Part shown: piece by piece, positions 7,398-63,338 of the stretch | How positions within the stretch are numbered: the stretch's first letter is position 1 | How the letters are laid out: each line of letters starts with the position of its first letter | Source: Iphione sp. A-MEVVRFRX5 | Lineage: Eukaryota | Direction: 5' to 3' | Assembly: GCA_976226885.1 (NCBI GenBank) | Contig: OZ320316.1 | Coordinates: forward strand, 46,376,001 to 46,440,000 | Length of the DNA: 64,000 nucleotides | Program-made: the position numbers and the translations under genes | Notes under the pieces: model-generated | Told to the model about the DNA's origin: nothing | Databases searched by the model: none | What the model saw: the letters and a program-made list of their open reading frames with translations, nothing else

Positions 7398-7690
7398 GAC
7401 CTAATAAAAAAAGGTTCTGTGTTCCCAGTAACCCGACCGACCCTGCATACATTAAAGCCAATTGTGATATATTTTGTTCTTGTTTTGTGAATATCTCCAG
7501 ATTGAATGAGGTTAGACATTTGTTCTCTATACAATTTTCTTCCTTGTAACATTAGCTTTCATATGATATCACTTCCATTAAGATTTAAGTAGTATAGGTG
7601 GTGTTACCATGTGCATTTGTGACTTTTAGTATCAGGTGACATTGCCAAAAAAAAAGACCCTATCTTTTTTGGGCTTCTTACCGGAATCTC
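7398..7690 (+). mobile_element. MITE family A, right end degraded
   Basis: taa|gacctaataaaaaaaggttctgtgttcccagtaacccgaccgaccctg matches the left TIR; interior matches copy 923-1258. Confidence 0.65.
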
Positions 7691-9914: not shown

Positions 9915-10230
9915 GGCCTAAAAAGATGTCTGTGTTTCAGTACCATGTTATAAATATAGAGGACCGGTTGGTAGTTTGTTTTGTTTTTCTACTTATTTGC
10001 AGTGTCAATTACCACCAAAAGTAACAAATGCATATGGAAAGCTAGGTTCTTCTGCTTTGATTTTAATGAAATACATAACACATGATAGCTTATGAAATAA
10101 GCTACAAGATGTGTTAAAATATATGTCTTTGTTGTTAGGCATTCCAGTGATATTCACAAAAGAAGAAAAAATAAGTTGCAATTGGTCGTAATTAAGGTAG
10201 GGTCGGTCGGGTTACTGGAAACACAGAACT
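9915..10230 (-). mobile_element. MITE family A, reverse-orientation copy
   Basis: tta|ggcctaaaaagatgtctgtgtttcag at the left; gtagggtcggtcgggttactggaaacacagaact at the right; interior 10040-10180 resembles the reverse complement of the family A core. Confidence 0.65.
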
Positions 10231-11151: not shown

Positions 11152-11489
11152 GGCCTAAACAAAACATACCTGTGTTTCCGGTAACCTGACTTGCCCCTAA
11201 TTTTAGTACCAATGGAAAATTTTATTTTTTTCTTGTTTTGTGAATATCTTTGGCATGAAAGATGATAGAAACATATACTATACATCATTTTGTTGCTCCT
11301 TATTACCTCTCATTTGATGTATGTTTCATTAAAATCTAAGCAGTAGAACTGATCTTACCATATACATTTGTTACTTTGAGAGGCAATTAACATTGGGAAA
11401 GAAAAGAGAAAAATAAAAAAAATACCACTTACCGACCAACCCTGTATATTTTTAGCTTGTTACTGGAAACACAGAACTCTTTTTAGGCC
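11152..11489 (+). mobile_element. MITE family A, full copy
   Basis: GGCCTAAAC..CTGTGTTTCCGGTAAC and GTTACTGGAAACACAGAAC..AGGCC|TAA; colinear with 923-1258. Confidence 0.8.
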
Positions 11490-13396: not shown

Positions 13397-16026
13397 CTAT
13401 TGATTGGAGAACACTAGTTTCAATAATCGTCTCCTGAAGATTGCTGGGTGTATGCATAGCTTCAGGGCCATTGGCAACTTGTTCCACTGCTTGACTCCTG
13501 CATAGACAAATGAGGTCTTGTAGGTTGCTGTTCGTGGTCTATGCAATGTCAGCCTAACTCCTATGCTCTTTCTAGTACCAATGCCTCCATATAACATTTT
13601 TCTTTGAAAATACCTAGAGGACAAAGGCAATGTAGTAGACAAAGCAGGGATATTCTCCCCCTGAGCTCAAGTGATTGCACTTTCATTCTCCTTCTGATAG
13701 ACAGATTCGTTTGATGTGAAAGTCTCCTACCGTGTACTAAGCCTCGCATCACCCCATTACAGCCTATTTGTAGATAGTCTAGGGTACTTTTACTATGGTT
13801 TACAATGAGCGGTAGGCTATAATCATACTGCGAGAGAAGGAAGCTCTTAAAAAGTTTTACCTTATCAGGGAATGGTATATGTCTCACTATTTTACTAATG
13901 TAGTACCCTTTGCTTCTTGTTGTACTTATGATGTTTTTATCTGACTCTGCCACTTCATATCTGCATGCAGGTAGTATCCTAAGAATTTGCAATCATTAAC
14001 TTTGGATATAGATGTACTATCTATATTAAGTCTAAGTCAAATCTGTGACTTTTCCAAAAAAGCATGTAGAACTTTTTTTCAATGTATAAGACTACAACAT
14101 TTTTTGCTGCTCGTCCTGCTGTATCCATAATGCCTTGTTGTAGTTTTCGTCTCAGAGCAGTAATATTCGAGGCGGTTGCATAGACAGTGATGTCATCAGC
14201 ATGCATTATCGTCTTCATAACTATATGTGAGTCTGGTAAGTCATTTATAAGGACACTGAAAAGGAAAGGGCCCAGTATACTGCCCTGAGGGACTCCGGTA
14301 GCCACTCCAAGCGATTTGGACGAAAATGCTGCCCCTACATGCTTGTTTTCATCTATTCCCTCATACACTTCTTTGGTAATACCTCTGATGCTGTGGCTGT
14401 ACTTTTCATCTTACGGAAACCATGTTGTGTCTCGGAAAAAAGTATGTTCAAATAAGATAGTTAGAGATTTGGTCATATACTAGTCTTTCTAGTAGTTTTA
14501 ATACGACTGGAAGTAAAGCTATGGGTCTATAAATTTTCTTTTCTAAGACAGATCTCTTCTTAAACAATGGAGTGATCCTGGCCAGTTTCCAGCTGTCAGG
14601 GAAGTGTGATGACATGATCAACTAATTGAATATATCACGTAATACATTGGCTGCATGTAGTAGGCTGTCTTTTAATACTCTCATCAGTATAATATCAATT
14701 CCCCTGGGCTTACTTATATTTAGGTTATTTTTATCTTGATTACTGCCAACGTCTGTACAGGGGTGAATTCCCAACCGCGTTCCTGGCACTCTATTGGCAG
14801 GACTGGAATATTCAATTTCCCTAGAAGAATAACCGCTTGATTAATAAAGTATTCATTCAACACATCAGGTACATTTTCTTTGCATACCCATTCTCCGTTT
14901 TCTTTAAAGCTAATGTCCTGTGAAGACTTATCCCTCTTCAGGACCATATAGTTAATAATATCCCAATATTCTTTCACACTTTAACAGGCATGGATTTTGT
15001 TTTTGTTGCATTGTTTTTTAGCTTTTCACTGTGCCTCTTTGCCTTTGACTTGTAGAACTTATATATGCGAAATGAGTCAATGTTATTGTTATGTCTGAAC
15101 TCTGCAAGGAAGTAATTCCTGTTACAAATGTAGTCCGACAGCTCCTTATCCACCCATTACTTTACCCTTTTTGTTAACCCGTTTCTTTATGGGACACATT
15201 GAGTTCACTACTGTTTCGAGTGCCCCTTGAAGGGTTGACCACTTCGTTGTCGCATCATCTGCTACATCAGCCTCTAGAGTTGTTATCATTTCAGACAGGC
15301 GCTCATTTAGTAATGTTTTGTTATAATTTGACCAGTCTTGGATTTCTCTTACCTTCTTTTTGATATGCTCTCTTACCTTTTTGTCTGTGATGAAGCTGGT
15401 TAGATGATCACTGATGGCGTCTGGGAATGTACCACTGTTGGAAATGGTGCTGATGGTATTGAATACCAAATCAATACACGACTTTGCCGTTTCATGAATT
15501 TATGTCATTTCCTTTATGTACTGGTTTATGCCTACTGCAATTACATACACTAAACAAATCATTTTTTGCTCGCGAGTCATTCATGATGCTGACTTTGAAG
15601 TCACCACCAAGAACTATTTCTGAGAATCCTTGCTTCTTGATTTCAGCTAATGTATCTCTTATGTAGTTTATACAAGCAGAGATGTGTCCTTTTGGAGGTC
15701 GGTATATTGATTCCTATGTGGGGTGGTAAGGTAAGTTTTACCCATATCCATTCGACATCTGCTGAATTTACAGAGTACTTGCACAAGTGCTCCGGTTGCG
15801 ATTTAGTACTGACATAAACGGCATCCCTCACCCCGCTTACAGTTTCTGTCTTGCTAATAATAGCATAATCTTCTATCCCGATAGCATGCATGGGTATCTT
15901 CTTAGTCAACCATGATTCAACAATTCCCATAGCAAACACAGACTCCCTTTTTATCTAGTCCTTAGTACAGTCCATCTTATATAGTAGGCTATGAACATTC
16001 AATAAGGAGAAAACACGACCTTTCAT
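13397..16026 (-). pseudogene. LINE ORF2 (APE endonuclease + RT), CR1/L2-like, disrupted
   Basis: MKGRVFSLLNVHSLLYK..GIVESWL (EN start), AISDH (EN end), FPDSWKLARITPLFKK..YRPIALLP, GVPQGSILGPFLF..INDLP..HADD (RT), TSFVYAGVKQWNKLP (C-term); multiple stops and frameshifts. Confidence 0.9.
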
Positions 16027-16520
16027 CTTTTATTATCTTGCTTTTTACAAATAACAATGAGTTGTAGTACAAAGAATGAAATAATAGGGCACTGAATTCG
16101 ACATGATATATTGCTCTAACCTTCACTTACAGTTGCTGCTATGACAAGCGGTGGAAAGTTGATCTCTTGTCTCAGTGATTCAAGTAACTTCCCATTATAT
16201 TTGTCCCGGTCCATTCCTTACTGGCGATTTTCGGATTCAGCAACGAGCAACCTGCACCGAAATAGGAGTCATATGTCCCTTCCACAATTGTTCTCTGCCA
16301 GTCGATATGAGTTCTTCCCTGAAACTGTCACTCTGACACATGCGCACCTTCAAAATGTTGCGCATGATGGATTCCTTGATGTCTTCCCATTGGTCGTTTA
16401 CCTGAATGCTACTCCCACTTCGTTTAGCCATGAGGGGAGAGGTCTCATTCCTGATCTCCTCCGCCAGCTGTTCCATTCCATTGTTGAGTGATTTTCGCTC
16501 TGGCACACATGTTCTACGTA

Positions 16521-17211: not shown

Positions 17212-17487
17212 GGCCAATAACAACACAAAACAACCAAGGGTGACTTTTAATTTTTTTCTTGCTTTTTGAATAACTTTGAAATGCATAATGATAGAGACAT
17301 GTTCTATACACCAAATTGTTCCTTTTATTCAAATCCAACCAATATAAGTGATATTACCATACACATCTGTTGCTTTCATGATCCTTTTACATTGAAAAAA
17401 AAAGAAAAATAAAATAAATGTGACCTATGGACCAACCCTGTATTTTTTCAGCTTGTTACCGGAAACACAGAACTTTTATGTTAGGCC
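17212..17487 (+). mobile_element. MITE family A, left end degraded
   Basis: Interior and right TIR GTTACCGGAAACACAGAAC..TTAGGCC|TAA match family A. Confidence 0.7.
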
Positions 17488-18979: not shown

Positions 18980-21391
18980 TAATCCAATAGTGGGGACCCT
19001 GGTCGGGCTGCTAAGCGTACCTGGGTGTATTGTTACTTGCGCTCAGTCAGTCGAGGTCAGTCCACCAAACAGAATGGACCATGCCAGTGGGTTACTGTTA
19101 CTCCAACCAATTTTCCTGCATTCCAACATTACTCCCAGCAATATGGAGGAGAAAATTAACGAAATGATGGCAGCATTTAAAGAAGTGACCACAGAACTCA
19201 AGCATGTCAGAGCCAGAATGGAAAGAATTTAGTCACAAGTCAAGTCCAAGACACCCGCTACAGCCCTTGCTGTCCTCATCTGCTCTTAGGCTCTCTATGG
19301 CCTCTCGCTCACACCAGCCGGTGGCCTCTCAGCAGGTGCAGACGCACCTACTGAACCTCAGCCAGGTGTAGATGGACAAGATGGCGACTCATGCAAAGAC
19401 AGTTCTGATGACCTTCTCCCCTCTCCTGAAGAACATAAGGGGCTTGCTGCAGCTTCAATGAAGGACCTCCTCAACACTGTATACCCCGACAGCCTAGCTG
19501 CCAAAGGTAGGAAGACAAGATAGTCCCCAGCAATATTATTTATATGTAAAAGGGACAGACTAGTCTAAACTTTCTACCCTTAGCAATCATCAGTACATCA
19601 ATGGTCCATTGTTGATGTTGCTGGATGAAAAGGCTCCTTCCAATCTTGGTAAGGAGCATCTTGTTCGTCATTTGATCCAGTTAACCTCTGAGTTCCATCA
19701 TTTTCCTTGGTCTCCTCTGAGAGACTGGGTGGCGGAGATCTGGGAGGCCTACAATTTTGAATGCCACATCCTCTCCAATGATAGGACCATACAACAGTGC
19801 AAGGCCAGGGCTCTGAATGTGTACACTACTGCCTCACTTAGAAAGCCAAAAGATTCTAGTGCCATATGTACAGTGGTTAGCAGGCTAGTGGAAACAGCAA
19901 CCACCCCATGAGATAACAAATCCAATAGTAACACATGCATGTCCTTTATGCTTTCATGTACACTCAAAGACACACAACCACAAATTAGACACCTGTCGTA
20001 CCAACAAGAACCTTGCCAAGCAGGACTCTCCTCCATGGTTGAAGGCCCAGGAGCCCCAGCGATAGTGGAAGGAGTGAGACCAGGAGTGGTAGAACAGCCG
20101 GACCATGTCTCCACCATTGACTACAGCAACACACCCATAGACTTTACCTCTGTATTAATAAAGGGGAATTTCTTTCAGAAATCCGCCCAGAAATTGATTG
20201 TTGTACCCCTGGGGAAATAGTAGCCTGGTCCAAGAGTACTCATCAATGAGATTCCGCCATTGTGCCTCTGTAGCCATGCCATGTAAATTGGCCAAATTGA
20301 TGTTGTTTAAAGGATCCACCAAAACTTGAACATGGCCCATGGCTGGTTGTTGGCAGACACATCTGCATCTAATGCTACATTATTCCCATTTCTATCAATT
20401 AGCATCTGCTGCTAGAGCAGAGACCCACATCCTCTCACCATGAAGCCAGACATTTAAACTGACCCAAGCAAATGTACAGGGGAGGCTCTTGACCAATCAG
20501 CGTACTACATTCGCTATACGTGATCCCCATGACAACAATTACCAACATAACAACTCTCTTCAAAATGCCTGGTCATTGGTCAAAAAGAATGCACTTTCAA
20601 AATCTGAAGGTATCATTGGCTAGGGGACTACCAGGTACCTAGGAAGTGGGCCTAGGATGATGGGAGGGCTGTAAGATGAGCTACTGAAGTTTGGAAAAAT
20701 AGCTCCAAGCAAGGCTTCTTTTGTCTTTGTGCATTCGAGCATCTACCAACTTCAGAGCCATATTGGAGGCACTTATAGTCATCCTAGGAGTCTAATATTT
20801 ACATAGAAAAAACTTCAGGTACAATAAATATGAAAACAATAAAAACCCCATTTTCAATAATTTGACCAACTTGACACAGCTCGATTTTAGCCCCTGTGAC
20901 TTCTGACTCATTAGAATAGGTCACATTTATTGAGTACCCAACCACACAAGCCCCAAGTGAGTATCACAGCATATAACAGCACTGAGACAGTTTGCTCAGG
21001 CAGCAAGTTTAGATGCCTCAATATTATATTTGCACCACATCATTACATCACTGGAGGTGGTGGACAAGAGATCAGAGCACCTGATAGATAGGAAATACTC
21101 AATCACACCTGAACATCTCACACTTATTATCAAATTCCTCTCTCGTTTTGGTCCTTTGGGGGTATACTTAAAGCATCATTTCTCTTTTTATTTTTCTTAA
21201 TGGTCAGGCAGTCAAACATAATACCCAAGACCCCCACATTATTGATCCAAGCAAACAACTAGTCTGATGAGACATAACTTGTTATCAGCATTATATCACA
21301 TCCCTTCATTTGTCAAAAACTATTACGAAGAATCGGCCTCACATAATAACCATCCCAGCTATTCCCAAATCACCCTTGTGCCCATTAATAG
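18980..21391 (+). mobile_element. Decayed DIRS/Ngaro-type tyrosine-recombinase retrotransposon, 5' part
   Basis: Gag-like LVRHLIQLTSEFHHFPWSPLRDW; degenerate RT/RNaseH region ~20120-20700; YR N-half KYSITPEHL..ASFLFLFFLMVRQSNIIP..DPSKQL..LSKTI..IPAIPKSPLCP (21090-21391). Confidence 0.75.
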
Positions 21392-21713
21392 TGTAACTTG
21401 CGTATTTAAATCTCCTTTGAGTTACTCCTTGGAATAAAGTAATACCCCCAAGTGTCGTATGTGTGTTGTTATTCCCACTTGGTAAATCCTCCTATGGTAG
21501 TTAATTCCCTGGCTTAGTAATCCTCATGTGTTAATCCAATACACTACTCCAATAGGCTAACCCTAAGGTAAATCCAAGTGGGTATGTGTTCCTAGCATTC
21601 CCTGAAGAGACAACAGCCACAGCGTAATCCAAGTGCAGACTGGTTTATTGGCCACACAGGGCCCCTTATATATAGGCAGCAGTCAGTCACATGATCATCT
21701 CCAACATGCAACA
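21392..21713 (-). mobile_element. Putative 3' LTR of the Gypsy-like element
   Basis: TGT...ACA ends; on the minus strand TATATAA (~21670) followed ~20 bp later by AATAAA (21644-21649). No matching 5' LTR or TSD found. Confidence 0.45.
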
Positions 21714-21756
21714 CAGTAATTTTTTTTTGGAACCCTTTTGCTACATGTGACCTACA

Positions 21757-22250
21757 TACAGGCTATAAATAGCACACCCAGAGTTCATCAAGTACAGCAC
21801 AGTGCATAAACCTTGGCGACACCGCCAACCCTGTGGCCCAGGAGGCACACTCCTATACTAAAAGGTTGGCGTCACCGCCAGCGATCCCTGCCTACTAGCT
21901 ATAAATAGCACTCATGCCCTACTTACAGGCTATAAATAGCACACCCAGAGTTCATCAAGTACAGCACAGTGCATAAACCTTGGCGACACCGACAGCCCTG
22001 TGGCCCAGGAGGCACACTCCTATACTAAAAGGTTGGCGTCACCGCCAGCGATCCCTGCCTACTAGATATAAATAGCACTCATGCCCTACTTACAGGCTAT
22101 AAATAGCACACCCAGAGTTCATCAAGTACAGCACAGTGCATAAACCTTGGCGGCACCACCAATCCTATGGCCCAAGAGTCGCACTCCCACACTAAAAGGT
22201 TGGTGGCACCGCCAACGATCTCGACTCTGTATGGGAGGCTTAGCAGCACC
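21757..22250. repeat. 167-bp tandem repeat x3 in the Gypsy 3' region
   Basis: GGCTATAAATAGCACACCCAGAG starts at 21761, 21928 and 22095; copies 1 and 2 nearly identical, copy 3 diverged. Confidence 0.95.
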
Positions 22251-23014
22251 GCCTCCCATACCCTACACTCTCCCCTCTTTAAATCCAAATGTCCAGGGGA
22301 ACTTTGGAAGCGAGTAATATTTGAGTAAGGTAGCTACTTACCACTTCTAGCTGGCAGTCAGGCTTGCTCTCTGGGGTAAATATCTTCCTTCAGGAAACAA
22401 CAGTACAACAGTCCCTAAACAAAAAAAACACTCCTCTACTTCTCTTTTTGGAGGGAGGGTCTCCCCCTTGAGTAACGTCCCCAGCTTGCCCCAATATGGG
22501 GTACATACGGCAACCATCAAACAAAACTTTTTCTTTTTGTGGGGGTAAGATCCCCCTTACTTATCTCTTCTTCCTGGAACATCCATGAACAATCTTAAGT
22601 AACTCTTTTTGTGGGGTAGGGCCCCCTTTGTGTTTTCCAGCAAACATCCCCTCTCTCTGGAGGCCAACACAACTGCTCAATACTTTTTTTGTGGGGTATG
22701 AGTCCCCTCCCATTTTCTTAATGCTGAGTTCAAACACCTCCAGCTTGTGCATCAGGTTTCCTTAGTCTCCAACAACGGCTGAGTATACACATCATCTGTT
22801 ACTCCCCAATATGGGGCAAATCAACGGCTTGACTAGTACAGTAACATTTTTTTTTAGGGATACAGTTCCCTTTCCATTTGAGCCAACCGCAACCTTAACT
22901 CAGGGTAACACTCTTAGGTAAATCACGAGTACAATATCATCAATAAGCAGCTGAAACTGGGGGTAATAGACTGGTCGTCACAGGTGCATGAGCAGGGCGA
23001 TGCAGTGCCACTGC

Positions 23015-24421
23015 CTAGTCTCGACTACTCGGCCCCTCATCCATGTATTCCTCCTCCCCGTCCCCCCAGATGTCTCCGAGGTGGAGGAGGCGCTGAGTTG
23101 GTGGAGCATAACCACAAATGTCGGCTAGGGTGGGGTGGAGTTTCTGATACTGTTCCCGTCTCTCCTGGGTAGCTTGGGCCCAGCTCTGGCCCACCGGATC
23201 GGGGTGCGTGCGTTGTCCCTGGATGAAGTCTTCGGCGGCCTCCACCGCTTTATTGTTCAGCTTGAGGAGCTGGTCCAGATTTCCCCACTCTTCCTCCCGG
23301 GGCACCTGCAGACCGGGGAGTATGAAGGCAGGGCGGCGACGTAAAGGCCTCATCAAGGGTCCCAGTAGATCGTCCTCTTGATTGCTCTCCGCCATGTGGA
23401 CAACCCAAGCCAGTGCTAGGGATGCTACAAAACGCTGCGCTGGGGACATACGATTCCAGGCATGCGGTGGCCAGGTGAGATGATCTGGCAGCTTCACCTG
23501 AGTGGACACGAGTGTATCTTGTAGAACGGCCACCTGGGGGTCGACAACGCCATCCAGGATCTCTCGTACATAATTGGCGCTGGGGGCGATGTGTGGCTCC
23601 GGTAGGAGATGACGGGAAAGACGAGACAAGTGCCCCTCTAGTAACAGCAGCGGGCGGGGAGCACTGCTCAGTGCAAGGCTGTCCACCCCAGTCCCATCGG
23701 GGTCGGGCCCTGACCGCCAGGGGGATAAGAGACTGGTGACTGGTGCTTCGAGTCCCAGCACCGGCTCAGCCGGTCCTGGAAGTGCGGATGGTCTCTCGGG
23801 CGACAGGACCGCAGCCGCCTGGCTTAGGAGTGGGTCCCTTGATCTGTGCGCCGGGCCGGCCTGTCGCTGAGCCCCCAAGCGGGCATCGTGTTCTACTGCT
23901 GGTCCACTCTCATGCTGAGGAGGGTCCGCTGGCTGATCCGGCATTGTCAGGCAGCGTCGCATGGGTGGCGGGGGCGGGGCTCGACAGGTGCTTTCTGCCA
24001 ACATCTTTTCTGCCTCCCCACGGCTCAAGGCCCACCCCATGTTGCGCAGTTCTCGAGCCCTCAGTATAATTTCAGTCAACTCATCATCCGGGGCCATTAC
24101 GTCTCCTCTTGGGGTTGCATCATATTGTCGATGGTAGGCCTTTTCCATGAGGCCAAAGTCAGCCACCCAGTGGTGGTAATGCCGGATGTGCTCAACCCAG
24201 GATTGTTTGTGGGAAAGTATACTGGGACAATAGAGGCACCTCATGTGCCTTCTCCTCTTACCTAGGTGATAATCGTCCACATGTCTCTTGAGAGAGTCCC
24301 CGGGGAAGAACGGCCGCGGCAGAGTGCACCTCTTGCATAAAACTATTCCCTCCGGCTTCTCCATCCCAGGTTTGACCACCCGGGGCAGCCGGCCAGGCTC
24401 GTCCACTGGTCGTCGGGGCAT
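23015..24421 (-). CDS. Intact 468-aa accessory ORF of the Gypsy-like element: two N-terminal C2H2 zinc fingers, Pro-rich linker, C-terminal domain of unknown family
   Basis: CKRC-x14-H-x4-H and CLYC-x12-H-x4-H; C-terminal WPPHAWNRMSPAQR..FILPG. ATG at 24421 lies 17 nt after a splice acceptor; the ORF-track start at 24553 is a TTG inside the predicted intron. Confidence 0.75.
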   Translation of the reverse strand: MPRRPVDEPGRLPRVVKPGMEKPEGIVLCKRCTLPRPFFPGDSLKRHVDDYHLGKRRRHMRCLYCPSILSHKQSWVEHIRHYHHWVADFGLMEKAYHRQYDATPRGDVMAPDDELTEIILRARELRNMGWALSRGEAEKMLAESTCRAPPPPPMRRCLTMPDQPADPPQHESGPAVEHDARLGAQRQAGPAHRSRDPLLSQAAAVLSPERPSALPGPAEPVLGLEAPVTSLLSPWRSGPDPDGTGVDSLALSSAPRPLLLLEGHLSRLSRHLLPEPHIAPSANYVREILDGVVDPQVAVLQDTLVSTQVKLPDHLTWPPHAWNRMSPAQRFVASLALAWVVHMAESNQEDDLLGPLMRPLRRRPAFILPGLQVPREEEWGNLDQLLKLNNKAVEAAEDFIQGQRTHPDPVGQSWAQATQERREQYQKLHPTLADICGYAPPTQRLLHLGDIWGDGEEEYMDEGPSSRD

Positions 24422-24438
24422 CGTTGCAGGCGGTGACA

Positions 24439-24576
24439 CTAACAGAAATATGAGGCGGGGCTGCTGCGATTTCCCCGCGTAGGCTAAGTCCTGGCGGTAC
24501 CGCCGACTTTTTGCAAGGTGCTTGTTGGCGGGATCGCCACGAGTAGCTCCCAAATGTTCAGATTATCACGGCTTAC
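24439..24576 (-). other. Predicted 138-nt 5'UTR intron of the ZnF ORF
   Basis: Donor GCAG|GTAAGC at 24576; acceptor cctcatatttctgttag|TGTCACC at 24439. Confidence 0.5.
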
Positions 24577-25310
24577 CTGCTAGCAGCTCCCCTTCGACTT
24601 CGGTGGCGGGGCCGCCACCGATTCAGCTGAGTGCTTGCGCCAATGATTCTACGAAGAACTACGGCTATATTTCCTCGTGCTGGGTCTCTCCTCTCCGCCT
24701 TGCTTTCCCAGGTACTTGCCTGATGTCCAGTTCCAGGGGAATTCCTCTCTTATGCCCCTGTTTAGCTCACTTACAACCGACTTTTGTAATCTGCCTTCCC
24801 GATCGTAATCCACGCTGGTTCGAAAATGAGGCATACCGGATGTTTTGGTTGTCCACTTCCGGTTGGTTTCGTGGTGACCCCGCCAGCGTCTTTTAGTTGA
24901 TTATTCCGCCCCTGTCCTGTTTTCACCGTGGTAATATCGGTGGCGTATCCGCCAGTCTTCTGTCCCAGGATCCCATCTCACAAGGTGGAATATGTTCCCG
25001 TTGGCGGTGTCGCCTGCCGAGTTACGTCTCTTTTCGGTGGCGGTGCCGCCACTCTTCTTACACTAGCGCTCGCATCTCTCCCAGTGGGACCGCCAACCTT
25101 TTCTCGACGGGAGGCGGTTTTTGCGTCATAGAATTTCCTCGGTGGTGGGGTCGGCAACGTCTTCTGCATCATCCTTTTTACTCATCGGCGGGGTCGCCAA
25201 CGTTTTTCTCGTTGGTGGTGGATATTGCGTCGTACTTTTTATCCGTCGGCGGGGTCGCCACTCATTTTCTCCTCCATCGTGACGCTATATAAGTCGGCGG
25301 GGGGCGTGGC
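24492..25310. promoter_or_regulatory. Array of TGGCG-N4-CGCCA palindromes plus TATA and GC box upstream of the ZnF ORF
   Basis: About 10 copies between 24492 and 25260; CTATATAAG at ~25285-25293; GGGGGCGTGGC at ~25300-25310. Confidence 0.55.
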
Positions 25311-26559
25311 CCGCCGTCAGTCGTTGACTCGCCGCCGGTAAGAGCAGGTTGAGCCTACCACGGCTCTTCCTCCCTGCCTCATTTCACTGTCCCCCTATCC
25401 GATGTCATATTTGCTTGTCCAGTGTTTCCCTCTTAGGGGCTTTCCTCTTCCAGAGATAATTGGGGGGTAATTTTTGGATGCTAGGGGGGGTCACTCTTCT
25501 TCTCTGGGGGGTAACTAATCATATTTCCCCCGGTTTAAATGACATAATTACATTCTACCTTATCCTAGTGGCCGAGCAGCTGGTGTCTCCCAGAGGAAAT
25601 GGACAGCATCTTGGTCTTCGCCTTCTCCTAGAGGAAATGGACAGCATCTCGGATGGCCTTCCTCAGGGCAATTGCAAACAGTTCTTGTTCAGCCAGTCGG
25701 TGACTACCCCCCCCCCTTTCCACTGGGGGTGACATCCATACACAGTGCTATTCTTCATCACTATGTCCACCAAGGGCCTGGCGCATTCCAGAGGCCATGG
25801 GTTGCATCCTGGCCCAAGCGTTCCCCCAGCAGGGATGACCAGCAGTTCGAATAGCGCTCCGTGTGGCAGCGGTGCAAAGTCTCGTTTCATTCTCACCCCT
25901 CGGCAGCGAGGGGAAACTAACTCTTCGTTAAACAGCCTGTTCGCGTCCTAGTCACCCTCTCGGTTGCTCCTCTCAGGGGCCTACCTATCGACCCCTCTGG
26001 AGATCGTTTCGAGCTTTCCATGTCTAACTCCGGGCCCTCTCCAATAGCCCTGTACATTCCATAAGCTCTTTTGTGCTCTCTGGGATGTTCATCCTCCCAC
26101 TCCAGACCTTTTTAAGCGTCCCAGGATGTCCGTCCTCCTCCTAGACCTTTTCAGGGCCCACATGGCCCCCAGGATGTCTACTCTCTCCTTCCGAGGAGCA
26201 TTCTAAGCTTCTGGCAGCTCCAGGCTCTCCTCGCTTTTGCCTCCCAGAACTTTTTGGACGCTTACAGGGAGTCTACCCCTACACGGACTCGTTTTGGATG
26301 CTGGTGATCCTCAGGACGTCCGTCATGTCCTACTGGAACTTTTGAACGCTACACGCTCCAGGTGTTCCACCACCTTCCATGAACTTTTTGAGTGCCACCT
26401 GGGTGCTTATACCCCCAATTCTTCCCGACTCCGGCTAACTCCTGGGGGGGGACCGTCCCCCCATGCCTGAAGTCTTCGCCTCGGCCTCTCCATTCGCCTG
26501 CGACGCCACCATCTTCTTCCTTAGCGTCAGAATTCACTGAGGGAGATTGTCTCCTTGGT

Positions 26560-27300
26560 TACGTCATAGCCGGTTCCGATGAACCACCTTAAACTTCGCC
26601 TTTCGTGTCCGTTGTGTCACCAAACGCTCGTCGTTGAGCCGCCTGACTACCTCCTACTCTCCTGGGTCGCCTCCAAGACCCTTATTTCCCCCACTAGCCC
26701 CTGTTACTCCCACCCCGGGGCAGTTAGGGCCCCCTATGGGTGCTGCTTAATGGGATGGGGACCCAGAGAATAAATCTCGGATTGTACCACGTCAGGCTGC
26801 CCCACTGTCTGAGCTAGCAGCCCAAAGATCCCTCGCTCCATCCACTTCTCATCCAACCCCTCTATCAGAGACCTCAGGATTGGTCAGTGAGACAGTGGCC
26901 CCCCCCAACTCCCATGGAAAGGGACACGTCACGGGCTCCACGTAGAGTGGTTACTTTCCCAGGACGCTGCTGCGCCCCTGACTCACCATCAAAACGAACC
27001 CTCCCTTGGGCCAGGTCTATGACTGCCTGATGATGGTTTAAGAAATCATTCCCCAAGATACCCTCTTCTCCAGTCTGAGCTATCAGGAAAGGGTGAAAAA
27101 AAAACTGTCTACCCGCTACTTCCTATCCCTAGGACCTCTGTTTCTAGCATGGGGATTACATGTCCAGCCGCCCCGGTAATCCAGGTCTCCCCTCTTTTAC
27201 CTTCAAGGCCAAAGACTACCCCAGGGTAAACAATGCAAACTCCTACCCCCGTATCCACCAGGAGTATATAGTTGCCACCCCTTATGCTTACCTGTAAGTG
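26560..27300 (-). pseudogene. Gypsy-like pol remnant: aspartic protease, first RT motif, integrase C-terminus; RT/RNaseH/IN core deleted
   Basis: ILLVDTGVGVCIV..GILGNDFLNHHQAVIDL (protease); PHPIKQHP* (pre-RT PIKQxPYR motif); EVVRRLNDERLVTQRTRKAKFKVVHRNRL (GPY/F-like IN tail). Confidence 0.8.
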
Positions 27301-27787
27301 TGGCCCCCGGCCTTGCTCCCTTATGCACCCCAGGGGGACTGGATCAGCCATGCCCCCCGGGCCTTTTTTTTTGTGAAGAAAACTCTGGTGGAAAGAACTT
27401 TATGTGTTTTTTTCCGAGTTTTTTTCACCTGTTTCTTCAATTTTTCCCACCTAGGTTTTGCCTTATCCATAGAGTTTTTATAAGCCAAGCTGTAAGTCAG
27501 GTCTGTCCATCAAAGTTCAGTCTGTCTATATGTATAGGCATCATATTGTTTGGAACGTGGTATTTCAGTGTAAAACCCCGGTGCGACCGCGCAAACTCTG
27601 TCATGGGGTGTTCCTGCCCATGAAATGTATAGGCATTATAAATAGGATATTTATCGAGATGTATATTATACAAGGGTCAACAAGCCTGTATCTACGTGGG
27701 TAACTATATGAGTCTATGGATGTTATGACATCACATTCTATTCATTCAGCGTCATTTTAAAACGATCTTTTAACGGTGTAAGACGTT

Positions 27788-28330
27788 ATGACTCCTGGTG
27801 GTGTCTTGCTGTATAATAAGGGGAAATATTGCAAGAGATGTGGTGTCACCCACCCTCTACCAGTGGGGAGGAACGGTAAGGAGTTCTGTGACACAGAGAA
27901 AAAGAAGAATGATGAAATCAAGCCTACTAATGGTGATGATCTGCATAGTTCCTTGTCTTGCCTGAAGAATCTGATTGAGTTGTTGGCAGCAGCCGGTTCG
28001 TCGAAGGTGGATGAGGAGAGGGGGCTCCGTGCTAATGCTGACATTGATTCCCCAGGTGATTCTTGTGAATCATGATAGATTAAAGGCTGCTTGTAAGAAA
28101 TCGGGGCTTACCGGCATCACCTGTCACTCATTTAGACGTGGAGGAGCATCATTTTTTGCCTTGAAGGGTGTTCCCCTGCCCGATATCAAATGTAGAAGTG
28201 ACTGCATCAAGTTCCAACTGTCTTTTCAAGTATGTTGATCCTAAATTGATGATCTTTTTATTTCTGATGAGGCTCTCTTCTGTTGATTGGGTTTGGGGAG
28301 CTCAGCTTATATATTGTCTAACCTTCGTGT
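27788..28330 (+). mobile_element. DIRS/Ngaro-type remnant: gag-like N-terminus joined to YR C-terminus
   Basis: YCKRCGVTHPLPVGRNGKEFC (CxxC..H.P.G gag-like motif); RLKAACKKSGLTGITCHSFRRGGAS..GV..IKCRSD/SSNCLFKY (HxxR and catalytic Tyr region). Confidence 0.7.
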
Positions 28331-40790: not shown

Positions 40791-43700
40791 TCACTCCATG
40801 GGCACGTCGAGCTGAATGATGTTGGCCGATTTGAAGACGAAGCCCTCGATTGGTACTATACCATAGACAGGTACCGCATCGGGGGCGTAAGGGTCCACGA
40901 CGAACTTGATGGTTGTCTGTAAGTTCTGGGTGTTGAAGTCGGTCGCAATGAGTACTGCCCCAAAGAGGTCGGTCACCTGATCGCCATGACAACTGCTGTT
41001 GAAGGCGAAAATGGTGTTCTCCATTTTACACATAGCCAGAGTGGTATTGCCAATGGTGACTAACACTCCTTTCGTAAAAGGACCGTACAGTTCTCTATTG
41101 ATATTGTCTACTACGGTGTCTATGGTGTTTCCAGTGGTGAAGGGGGAGACTAAAGGCTGCACATCACGTGGGAACAGCCGGATGGACTCTACGGGGACGC
41201 CGTTGATGGAGGAGGCGGTGGCACTGCCTTCCAAGATGCAATTCTCCACAAGGAGGCACCACTGTCGTAATACGTGCTCGTCCTCCAGGTCGGGAGAGTA
41301 GGCCCGTGTGACCAGTTTGCTGAGGAAAGAGGCAGCCGCTAACTTGTTAGCCAAAGCAATGATGAAATTCTCGTGGGACTGGGTCTGCTGGTCGGCTGAC
41401 ACCACCCACGGAAATTTCCAAAGTCTCAGTGAGCGCGCCAGGACCATTCGGGGCACCTCCAGCTCTAGGAGTCCGACGGGGCGGACATCGTAGGTCGTCA
41501 GTTCCTCCTCCGTCTCGTCCGTACATAGTGTCCGGTCGACCCGGATATGCCGGTCAAGAATGTCCGGCATGACCTTTGCCCAGATGGCACGGTGGTCTTT
41601 GCGCAGGCGCCGCGCATGCGTCCTATAGACGTCGACCAGTTTGGGCACCAGACTGGCCGCCACCGCTGCCACTGTTACGAACACACCCGACCCTGTGAAT
41701 GCCCCGAGAGCGGACAGCGCCAGAAAAGTAAACACAACGAAAATGAAGACGAAGCTGAGGCGAATGAAGATTCTCCTTATTGACCTGCTCCAGCCACACT
41801 TCAGGTCGGCGCACACGTTGTAATAGAGTTCCTTGGAGACGTACTCTGTGTTGTCTCCATCCATGAACTTGACAGCGCCCAGGTTGTGCGTCTTGAGAAT
41901 TTGTATGGTGCCGTCCCGGAATACCTCGTCCGTGTCCTCGACGGCGGATATCCTCGGCGAGTTCTCGTCGATAAGCTTGAGGATGTCACAGTGCTCACTG
42001 TTGATGATGGCCAGTGTGTCGTTGAGGTAGTAGAGGAGGACGAGGATGAAGGCCACCACGGGTAGGGCGGTAGAAGCATGTAATACAGCCCCCAAACCGG
42101 TGAAAAATAGCACGTTGAGCAGGAACTCCGTCATGACAAAGACGGCCGTACAGTATCCAGCCAGCAGCGCCACGAAGGCCAGCCAGATGAGAGTGGAGCA
42201 GCCCCATTTACACAGGGTCGTCGGAGAGATGCATTCGCACGTCATTTCCGCCTGGGTCTCATCATCGTCGCGTTCACTGTCGTCGCGGCGCAGTTTGAAG
42301 AGCTTGTTATCGACCAGCGTCAGTCCAAAGCAGATGTTGAGCACGGGCACCTGCATGCAGACGCGGCCGATAAGGTGCGCCAACCGTCGAGCGCCCCAAG
42401 GGATCCAGCGAATCCTAAAGAGGTGCCGCTTGGTGCGGAAGTCGCCGTATGCTAACTTGCGGAGAATGTGTTTGTATCCGCGCGTCATTCGATCGTAGAG
42501 AAGATGCGGGTGTTCGTAGGGGCGGCGGTTGTCCATCTGGAGTAGACAGCGCTCTAGCGGGTTGTCCGGCCACGAAAGGAGAAGCACCGTATAGACGAAT
42601 GCTACGAATGAGAAGAGCATCCAGATGGTAAGGGCCGGATTATTCCGCGGCAGCAGCGCCCAGCCAACCAGGTTGGTGTTCAGAGCTAGGGGCCCGTAGT
42701 TTTCTAGGCCGGCAGCAAACTCGACGATAGCCGCGTATAGTGGCAGTCGCGGCGCGTAAAGAGCTGCGGCTGCGTAGAAGACGACGGGGTACACGATGGC
42801 GATGGCAAAGAAGCGCCAAAAGAAGCGCCAGCAGCGGCGGCAGCCAGACCCACGTCGGCAGGGTGCGGGTTGGTGCCGCCAGTCGGCCCAGGCATGGATG
42901 CAGCACCGTCCTTCGCCGTAGCAGTGAAAGACTAGGCGGAATAGGAAACGCGGCAGCGAGAAGGGCTTAGGATCGCTAAGATTGATGAGCTGGCGCGAGC
43001 TGATGCGGATGACATAGTTTCGCTGTCCTGTGATGCCATGTTTGAGAGAGGCCCGGAAGAACTTTGTTACATTGTCATACTTAAGCGTCATCTTAATCTT
43101 CATGACGACTATAGGGCTGAAGAGCGTGAAGATAACCGCGATGACGTCAATTACGGTGAGAACGCCGCTAACCTCTCGCCGGTACGATGTGTATATGCGG
43201 CAGAAGTGGTCGCCGCCTCGGAACTCGGCCGTATCGCAGCAGCGGTGGACGAAATGCGATACACTTCCAGTTTCTCCCTGCTGCTTCTCCTCCGCTCTCT
43301 CTTCATCCCGCCCGCCGCCATTCAGTTGATTGCTGTTGCTGCTGCTACCTCCATATTTGGTTGCTGGACGCCTCGCGGGCAACGTCTTGTTGACAACGCG
43401 GTGACATAGGAAGTCCCGGGCGTGACGTCGGCGTTCGACATGCGTCACGTTGAAGATAAGCAACTTTCGGACGGCATAGAGCCGACAGCCGGGCGACTGC
43501 CGCAGCAGACAGTCTGAAGGAACGGCGGCCAGTGACACATCAATATGGCGCCGTTGACCGTCCAGAATGTACAGTGACAGCACGTCGGCGTCCAGCGGAA
43601 GTCCCAATAACTTCCTACCCAGCCGTTCGGAAGCCCACACCCACTCCGAAGCCTTGAAGTTGTTGCCCATGTATGGGAAGTCGTCGAGGATCGATTCGTT

Positions 43701-44090
43701 CTCGCCAACGAAGCGTAGTCTGAAGGAGACGAGCGCCGTGTCGAGCTCCTCGATGTAATCCTGGAAGGTGGTCCGCACTTCGTGTAAGTTGAGCACACGC
43801 AAGACGCACGGCGTGGGGCAATCCGGTACGTACCGCTTCGGCCGGAAGTCGCCGTCTGCGGCAGCGGAAGTGGCGGTGTGGTCACGGTGATGCGTGGCCG
43901 CCCCGCCACGCCCGCCGCGCACCACCACACTACTGCCAGCGGCGTGCCCGTGCCTGTGGCGGCGAGGCGAGTCCTCCATCCAAGGCGCATGTTCAAAGGC
44001 GGAGAGACTTGAAACCACGCTGACCAAGACTAGAAGCAGCAATGGCGGCAGCGGCGACGGCGGCGCGGCAAGCAGCGTCGGCAGACGCAT
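40791..44090 (-). CDS. Intronless ~1099-aa multi-pass membrane protein: signal peptide, RPKR furin site, Cys-rich ectodomain, ~8 TM segments, C-terminal peptidase-C76-like domain
   Basis: 3.3-kb uninterrupted GC-rich ORF in AT-rich surroundings; hydrophobic leader MRLPTLL..LLLLVLVSVVSSLSA; several hydrophobic 19-23-mers; splice acceptor at 44261 upstream; AATAAA at ~40201 and ~39683 on the minus strand. Confidence 0.9.
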   Translation of the reverse strand: MRLPTLLAAPPSPLPPLLLLVLVSVVSSLSAFEHAPWMEDSPRRHRHGHAAGSSVVVRGGRGGAATHHRDHTATSAAADGDFRPKRYVPDCPTPCVLRVLNLHEVRTTFQDYIEELDTALVSFRLRFVGENESILDDFPYMGNNFKASEWVWASERLGRKLLGLPLDADVLSLYILDGQRRHIDVSLAAVPSDCLLRQSPGCRLYAVRKLLIFNVTHVERRRHARDFLCHRVVNKTLPARRPATKYGGSSSNSNQLNGGGRDEERAEEKQQGETGSVSHFVHRCCDTAEFRGGDHFCRIYTSYRREVSGVLTVIDVIAVIFTLFSPIVVMKIKMTLKYDNVTKFFRASLKHGITGQRNYVIRISSRQLINLSDPKPFSLPRFLFRLVFHCYGEGRCCIHAWADWRHQPAPCRRGSGCRRCWRFFWRFFAIAIVYPVVFYAAAALYAPRLPLYAAIVEFAAGLENYGPLALNTNLVGWALLPRNNPALTIWMLFSFVAFVYTVLLLSWPDNPLERCLLQMDNRRPYEHPHLLYDRMTRGYKHILRKLAYGDFRTKRHLFRIRWIPWGARRLAHLIGRVCMQVPVLNICFGLTLVDNKLFKLRRDDSERDDDETQAEMTCECISPTTLCKWGCSTLIWLAFVALLAGYCTAVFVMTEFLLNVLFFTGLGAVLHASTALPVVAFILVLLYYLNDTLAIINSEHCDILKLIDENSPRISAVEDTDEVFRDGTIQILKTHNLGAVKFMDGDNTEYVSKELYYNVCADLKCGWSRSIRRIFIRLSFVFIFVVFTFLALSALGAFTGSGVFVTVAAVAASLVPKLVDVYRTHARRLRKDHRAIWAKVMPDILDRHIRVDRTLCTDETEEELTTYDVRPVGLLELEVPRMVLARSLRLWKFPWVVSADQQTQSHENFIIALANKLAAASFLSKLVTRAYSPDLEDEHVLRQWCLLVENCILEGSATASSINGVPVESIRLFPRDVQPLVSPFTTGNTIDTVVDNINRELYGPFTKGVLVTIGNTTLAMCKMENTIFAFNSSCHGDQVTDLFGAVLIATDFNTQNLQTTIKFVVDPYAPDAVPVYGIVPIEGFVFKSANIIQLDVPME

Positions 44091-44136
44091 GCTCCCCACT
44101 CCCGGTAAGAAAGCGGCGGCGTCGATACCTGCCGCT

Positions 44137-44260
44137 TTAAGTCATGCCCCTCAGGGAAGCCCTCCAGATGGTGATGTCATGGCGTCTAGGTAGTGGTCGC
44201 TGACGTCAAGATGGGGCACTCCGGGCGGTAGAGAGTTGGCGGGCGGCACAGTGGCTCCAT
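44137..44260 (-). promoter_or_regulatory. 5' leader with three upstream ORFs
   Basis: uATGs at 44260 (24 aa, stop 44186), 44180 (9 aa, stop 44151) and 44145 (MT*), all terminating before the main ATG at 44090. Confidence 0.55.
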
Positions 44261-63224: not shown

Positions 63225-63338
63225 TGACATCTGGCGTGTCTACTCCTATAGCTGACAGTTCCAGGAGACGAACTTTACACTGACATCTGGCGTGTCTACT
63301 CCTATAGCTGACAGTTCCAGGAGACGAACTTTACACTG
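63225..63338. repeat. Perfect 56-bp tandem duplication
   Basis: tgacatctggcgtgtc..gaactttacac at 63225 and 63281. Confidence 0.95.

Follow-up and report, generated by a model that had tools for sequence, protein, structure and literature searches.

The 64,000-nucleotide stretch of DNA from Iphione sp. that was analyzed here (the window) contains a Gypsy-type element with an intact, sense-oriented third open reading frame (ORF3) that carries two C2H2 patterns. A short palindrome, GGCG-N4-CGCC, is shared by the long terminal repeat (LTR) of this element and a CpG-rich block immediately upstream of ORF3. As the best explanation of these observations, we tentatively propose that ORF3 encodes a DNA-binding regulator of the element itself that would act, through predicted binding, in a manner analogous to Tas or VANC. 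The locus pairs a candidate protein with a candidate 12-bp target. If ORF3 is an autoregulator, then gene control in the style of complex retroviruses arose outside of the retroviruses, and non-autonomous copies may owe their persistence to the regulator that they supply. Otherwise, the accessory gene is an orphan in an element that has decayed in the ordinary way. The palindrome clusters, the promoter-like appearance of the CpG-rich block, and a likely intron in the 5'-untranslated region (5'-UTR) extend a preliminary description of the locus.

As judged by its sequence, the element is a truncated and internally deleted Gypsy-type copy on the minus strand. Its recognizable 5' edge is near 27370 and is followed by a remnant of a retropepsin-type protease (26990..27330, minus strand; PF13975, E 5.7e-4, and PF00077, E 2.4e-3, both below curated cut-offs, in a translation with X at the breaks) that keeps the DTG motif. 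The C-terminal remnant of an integrase (26530..26800, minus strand; tail at ~26660-26560), recognized through a six-frame reading and a weak match to PF22938 (E 0.034), comes after the protease and closes pol. The matches of both remnants to Pfam arose with short queries only, and long reads gave none. With just ~330 bp between the protease and integrase remnants, the element lacks reverse transcriptase (RT), RNase H, and the integrase core. The preliminary description had reported that the remnants neighboring ORF3 are broken, and this is the case: the integrase is interrupted by two stops (26656-26654 and 26566-26564) and the protease by a stop (27111-27109) and a frame change in a T-run (27104-27096). 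No Pfam match to gag was detected on the minus strand between 24422 and 40700, and a second LTR, which would be the 5' LTR, was not found within the 64-kb window. In terms of paired LTRs, a primer-binding site, gag, and a target-site duplication, the copy reads as a truncated derivative of Ty3/Gypsy rather than an intact member. Lacking the 5' LTR, this copy cannot move.

Downstream of ORF3, a 3' untranslated spacer of 734 bp with short dispersed repeats (22281..23014, minus strand) leads to a polypurine tract (PPT; 22268..22280, minus strand) followed by TG. The PPT adjoins a 3' LTR of the TG...CA type (21392..22267, minus strand; TGTA...TACA, with the far end being provisional) that holds a TATA at 21672 and an AATAAA at 21649. 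The U3-like part of the LTR comprises an enhancer-type tandem repeat (21748..22220, minus strand) in which a 167-bp unit with two palindromic sites is present 2.8 times. Several smaller features were also observed in the element. In the spacer (22286-23014), a T-run/G-run word is present three times and a 13-nt palindrome twice, and a strong donor-like GTAAGT is located near 22343 on the minus strand, ~60 nt ahead of the PPT. The LTR opens with an inverted repeat (22229-22261) that encloses a degenerate copy of the motif, and a second long purine run, with no TG after it, is present in the region between pol and ORF3 (25721-25707, minus strand). Screening of positions 20500-28000 against 4227 Rfam families yielded no matches, and a scan for tRNA genes found none.

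The window holds other features as well. An open frame of 1116 amino acids (40791-44141, minus strand) with several hydrophobic stretches identified by eye, a CpG observed/expected ratio (o/e) of 1.09, and no Pfam match is likely a host exon or gene. Remnants of a decayed LINE-type RT (PF00078, E 3.5e-6) and of a NADAR domain (PF08719, E 2.1e-6), the latter ~2 kb upstream with the same orientation, occupy 14162-14317 and 16285-16476 on the minus strand and possibly represent a non-LTR element carrying NADAR. A CpG-depleted region on the plus strand (18990-20800; o/e 0.23), with broken frames and no meaningful Pfam match, is probably another decayed element. The window also includes four or five copies, 60-84% alike, of a dispersed repeat family (988-1249, 7467-7671, 11220-11481, and 17246-17477, with an inverted copy near 9975-10229), a perfect 56-nt tandem duplication at 63225-63336, and GA microsatellites; the latter and the LINE-type RT remnant are in keeping with an animal genome.

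ORF3 spans 23015..24421 on the minus strand, with its ATG at 24421 and its stop ending at 23015, and encodes 468 amino acids. The frame is fully open, as had been described, and extends open upstream of the ATG to 24562; given the local base composition, fewer than ~0.001 ORFs of this kind would be expected in the 64-kb window. Two tandem C2H2 patterns are present near the N-terminus, in keeping with the preliminary description, and comprise C29-X2-C-X14-H-X4-H52 (finger 1, aa 29-52) and C62-X2-C-X12-H-X4-H83 (finger 2, aa 62-83), each with a hydrophobic residue at the core positions H-9 and H-3. Two or more loose C2H2 patterns were recovered in 1 of 100,000 shuffles of the protein. PF12756, which is the best lead in Pfam, matches weakly (E 0.043-0.3) and scores below the cut-off (14.5 versus 26.9 bits), and the C2H2 identity is predicted from the residue pattern. 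Finger 1 has a proline at helix position -1, which is unusual for base-reading fingers. The two patterns (aa 29-83), with a KRRR linker, are followed by a proline-rich middle (aa 146-257; 21% proline), a helical region (aa 258-452) predicted by low-confidence, single-sequence AlphaFold models (pLDDT 38 and 42), and an acidic tail (aa 453-468) in which 44% of the 16 residues are acidic. This predicted anatomy fits that of a transcription factor.

The 19-residue Kyte-Doolittle mean of ORF3 peaks at 0.98, with a value of 0.18 near the N-terminus, and hydropathy and sequon scans detected no signal peptide, transmembrane segment, or N-glycosylation sequon. ORF3 is therefore not env, as the preliminary description had argued, and these data support its assignment as a third ORF that is distinct from env and encoded on the sense strand of a Gypsy-type element. 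The GC content of ORF3 is 0.60 versus 0.45 in the 3' spacer, and its CpG ratio by codon position follows an apparent trend of 0.79, 0.61, and 0.54 that is based on small counts.

The C-terminal segment of ORF3, with its WPP motif, had previously been likened to lophotrochozoan proteins, a likeness for which our searches yielded no homologue. The whole protein had no homologue at E <= 0.001 among the 8000 best-sharing candidates, residues 255-460 had no match at E <= 10 among 1311 candidates, and no match to ORF3 was recovered among 1.84 billion protein representatives. Because the protease remnant, which is a weak control given that the query is short and broken, was likewise without a match among 229 candidates, the orphan status of ORF3 was not used as evidence of novelty; the databases probably lack the lineage to which it belongs. 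In the ESM Atlas, the whole protein led to unnamed, low-recognition clusters and the C-terminal part to nothing. No stretch matched in viral collections (0 of 3 and, in a second search, 0 of 6) or in prokaryotic genomes (0 of 79). One metagenomic match (1 of 110) was rejected as seed-driven and without further similarity, and a candidate from a degenerate WPP-motif scan was rejected since its motif is flanked by stops. When the unshifted protease was compared with PDB sequences, the matches were at chance level only. Among the matches listed for open-licence PMC and bioRxiv texts, we found no animal Gypsy element with a C2H2, non-env third ORF; such elements may be recorded in Repbase or GyDB. 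In a survey of metazoan Gypsy elements with env, the main text includes neither 'zinc finger' nor 'antisense' (PMC13524379), and 'zinc' is absent from an annelid survey (PMC8220671).

At least four lesions were identified in ~136 codons of pol versus none in the 468 codons of ORF3 (P = 0.0026, assuming an even spread of lesions; P = 0.011 when just three pol lesions are counted), with the P-values being approximate since the pol segments were picked by eye and recognizability. This difference suggests that ORF3 likely outlasted pol under selection. Most simply, the copy belongs to a non-autonomous lineage in which pol was lost long ago and ORF3 was retained. Units 1 and 2 of the LTR repeat are identical except at 5 of 167 positions. 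Provided that the unit was duplicated before insertion, divergence since that time is ~1.5% per unit or lineage, a bound that is void if the duplication took place after insertion. In simulations, a neutral ORF3 stays open in 11-37% of cases at ~1.5% divergence and in 0.2-4% of cases at 5% divergence. Neutral survival since a young insertion may, as such, also be compatible with the intactness of ORF3.

In the 64-kb window, 11 copies of the palindrome GGCG-N4-CGCC were identified versus 0.18 expected, and all 11 are inside the element: three are in the enhancer-type repeats of the LTR and eight are upstream of the ATG between 24493 and 25259. A tighter pattern in which one mismatch is permitted identified 15 distinct sites, all but one of which lie in the element. 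The union of both patterns comprises six LTR sites, two per unit (21815, 21868, 21982, 22035, 22149, and 22202), and nine upstream sites (24493, 24527, 24605, 24873, 24942, 25003, 25039, 25187, and 25248), with perfect palindromes at 3 of the 6 former and 8 of the 9 latter. When the 979-bp upstream block was subjected to 300 local dinucleotide shuffles, a procedure that allows for local GC and for the choice of the motif after inspection, the best palindrome of the form 4-N(0-10)-4 occurred at most three times versus the eight observed. The palindrome is absent from ORF3 and from a 3.1-kb part of the other GC-rich ORF, located at 41-44 kb.

Enrichment in the LTR alone is marginal, with 2 of 300 shuffles reaching the observed level and no enrichment in a single unit; tandem copying accounts for some of the LTR sites, and three of the six are imperfect. 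The flanks of the nine upstream sites average 28% identity (one related pair is 65% identical), and most of these sites are therefore not tandem copies. The palindrome and a T-rich tail are all that the upstream block and the LTR have in common, and the palindromes are mostly inverted in orientation between the two clusters, which is compatible with recognition of double-stranded DNA. A weight-matrix scan was trained on the 15 sites and hence was not counted as evidence. The tie of the upstream block to the LTR through this cis-motif is statistically firm.

The upstream block (24422..25340, unstranded), which contains the nine palindromic sites, has a CpG o/e of 1.11 (1.12 with the sites masked) versus 0.20-0.27 in the R/U5 part of the LTR, the 3' spacer, and the protease; ORF3 and the window average 0.62-0.63. 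In its sequence, the block looks like a divergent internal promoter. Pattern scans predict an antisense-directed core promoter at 25286..25344 on the plus strand, with a TATA at 25286, an Inr-like TCAGTC at 25317, and a donor-like GTAAGA at 25338; an acceptor-like site is present beyond it near 25568 on the same strand. The word TATATAAG occurs 10 times in the window and is followed ~30 nt on by an Inr-like word in two cases, both in the element (a post hoc pattern). The two TATA-Inr pairs, comprising the LTR promoter and the plus-strand pair at 25286-25322, are each downstream of a motif cluster of the same sense. Toward ORF3, a 5'-UTR intron of 138 nt is predicted on the minus strand (24439..24576; CAG/GTAAGC ... 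TTTCTGTTAG/) that would end 17 nt before the ATG; the donor-like word occurs 10 times in the 128 kb of strands in the window, or with a ~7% chance per 0.9 kb. On the other side of the block, a stop-poor frame on the plus strand (25628..26480; 5 stops versus 8.3 expected) is a possible decayed antisense ORF and could be a second product of the divergent promoter. Its paucity of stops is not significant (the best of six frames has four or fewer stops in 22% of shuffles), and it has no Pfam match. The possibility that the block is a second or solo LTR was rejected, as its similarity to the LTR is limited to the motif and no AATAAA follows its TATA.

For ORF3 to regulate the element, we infer the following course of events. 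A spliced ORF3 mRNA would be produced from the internal promoter or, with use of the same acceptor, from the 5' LTR that this copy has lost, and the protein would be imported into the nucleus through KRRR. The two fingers would read a half-site of ~6 bp such that a dimer would cover the palindrome, allowing ORF3 to bind in the LTR and ahead of its own start codon. Bound ORF3 would then turn on, or keep open, both promoters, either through an activating acidic tail or through protection of the DNA from methylation. Most likely, selection operated in a lineage of non-autonomous elements that used pol in trans. The clear TATA-Inr pair of the upstream block is directed away from ORF3, and this counts against autoregulation. 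We consider it possible, and more doubtful than regulation by ORF3 as such, that an animal Gypsy lineage independently turned into a complex retroelement, with its own C2H2 transactivator or anti-silencer acting on palindromes of the LTR and of a divergent internal promoter, from which ORF3 would be transcribed in one direction and an antisense RNA in the other, and with the circuit being kept even by copies without pol.

The main rival to autoregulation, to which we assign a real but lesser probability, is that ORF3 is a genuine accessory gene whose product acts elsewhere, while the palindromes serve a host factor. LTR enhancers and CpG-rich promoters are the usual gathering places of host-factor sites, and the shared motif therefore does not implicate ORF3; the palindromes may be sites for such a factor. 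To our knowledge, however, no host motif has the exact GGCG-N4-CGCC spacing. The protein could instead act on RNA of the element, in export like that by CERV or Rev, or on chromatin at integration. The weakness of PF12756 as the best Pfam lead is consistent with this explanation, as is the presence in the element of donor- and acceptor-like sites that would require export of unspliced RNA, and CERV is a precedent from a Gypsy element in the passages cited (PMC10309623). The palindromes can also be drawn as hairpins of 4-8 bp. However, the sites are found in either orientation and, where symmetry is broken, the resulting G-U wobble falls on different strands, which argues against one RNA loop; none of the 4227 Rfam families matched the region. 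The mixed orientation of the sites favors DNA over RNA hairpins and does not separate a host factor from a factor of the element.

Two further explanations follow, in order. Host domestication of ORF3 and its CpG-rich promoter is possible and, in our view, unlikely; the rest of the element would be a fossil and the LTR would give just a poly(A) signal. The 5' LTR, gag, and most of pol are missing while ORF3, the promoter block, and the splice-like sites look intact, perfect sites are more frequent upstream than in the LTR, and neutral survival of the ORF becomes rare at 5% divergence, all of which is in favor of domestication. Yet the PPT and the LTR edge are preserved, and the small difference between LTR units is compatible with a recent insertion, for which the simulated neutral survival is 11-37%. 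Of the causes of retention proposed previously, selection after the death of pol gains support and domestication does not. Recent capture of a host gene, or a nested insertion in a dead element, with ORF3 intact through youth, is more improbable still: the higher GC content of ORF3 than of the 3' spacer, the second purine run at 25721-25707, and documented capture of extra ORFs (PMC5408684, in the passages cited) are in its favor, but the LTR and upstream block carry the same palindrome and thus belong to one element, the flanks of ORF3 lack terminal repeats or a poly(A) tail, and no host C2H2 family matched among the 1.84 billion representatives.

Many Gypsy elements have extra ORFs between pol and the 3' LTR, mostly without known function; the accessory gene of maize Grande reportedly has its own promoter. 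If ORF3 is a regulator, the locus may work by analogy like Tas or VANC, with homology to neither. Tas is a retroviral product, encoded after env, that is not known to be a C2H2 protein. No Pfam or protein match indicated homology of ORF3 to Tas.

As described in the passages cited, bdelloid LTR elements carry non-env ORF3s, including a non-autonomous family that retains ORF3 (PMC5408684), plant Ty3/Gypsy elements have additional ORFs (aORFs) (PMC7264820), and TRP28 of Retand is an antisense, plant-restricted product with predicted DNA binding (PMC11963269). These resemble the present locus in having an extra ORF in a long region between pol and the LTR, as a separate and probably spliced unit that is kept in non-autonomous copies. 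In contrast to the bdelloid ORF3s, which are of esterase, exonuclease, transmembrane, or coiled-coil types, and to the antisense TRP28, which is restricted to plants, ORF3 is encoded on the sense strand and has C2H2 patterns. The passages on these three systems do not mention a target motif, whereas a palindrome is present here.

Among animal elements, env of Oikopleura Tor is driven by an internal promoter (PMC4402516, in part). Tor and the present locus share a third ORF after pol in a Gypsy-type element and an internal promoter, which is predicted here; the third ORF of Tor is a transmembrane Env glycoprotein, whereas ORF3 lacks a transmembrane segment or sequon. CERV exports Cer1 RNA in Caenorhabditis elegans (PMC10309623, in part). 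It is a nuclear accessory protein that an LTR retrotransposon of an animal encodes and that is made from a spliced mRNA, properties that are predicted for ORF3. Its role is in RNA export, and no sequence link to ORF3 was found.

In the passages cited, the Tas protein (Bel1) of a foamy virus, BTas, binds both the LTR and an internal promoter (PMC4929722). No sequence match was found between Tas and ORF3, for which binding is predicted; both are accessory ORFs near a 3' LTR with common elements in the LTR and internal promoter, with self-activation being predicted for ORF3. VANC, according to the passages cited, binds dense motifs in non-coding, tandemly repeated DNA of its element, with local CG hypomethylation (PMC5735166). 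The VANDALs are plant DNA transposons with non-palindromic motifs in the same orientation and without homology to ORF3. Both they and the present locus carry a short motif at high density in element DNA that is non-coding and tandemly repeated, and both show local retention of CG.
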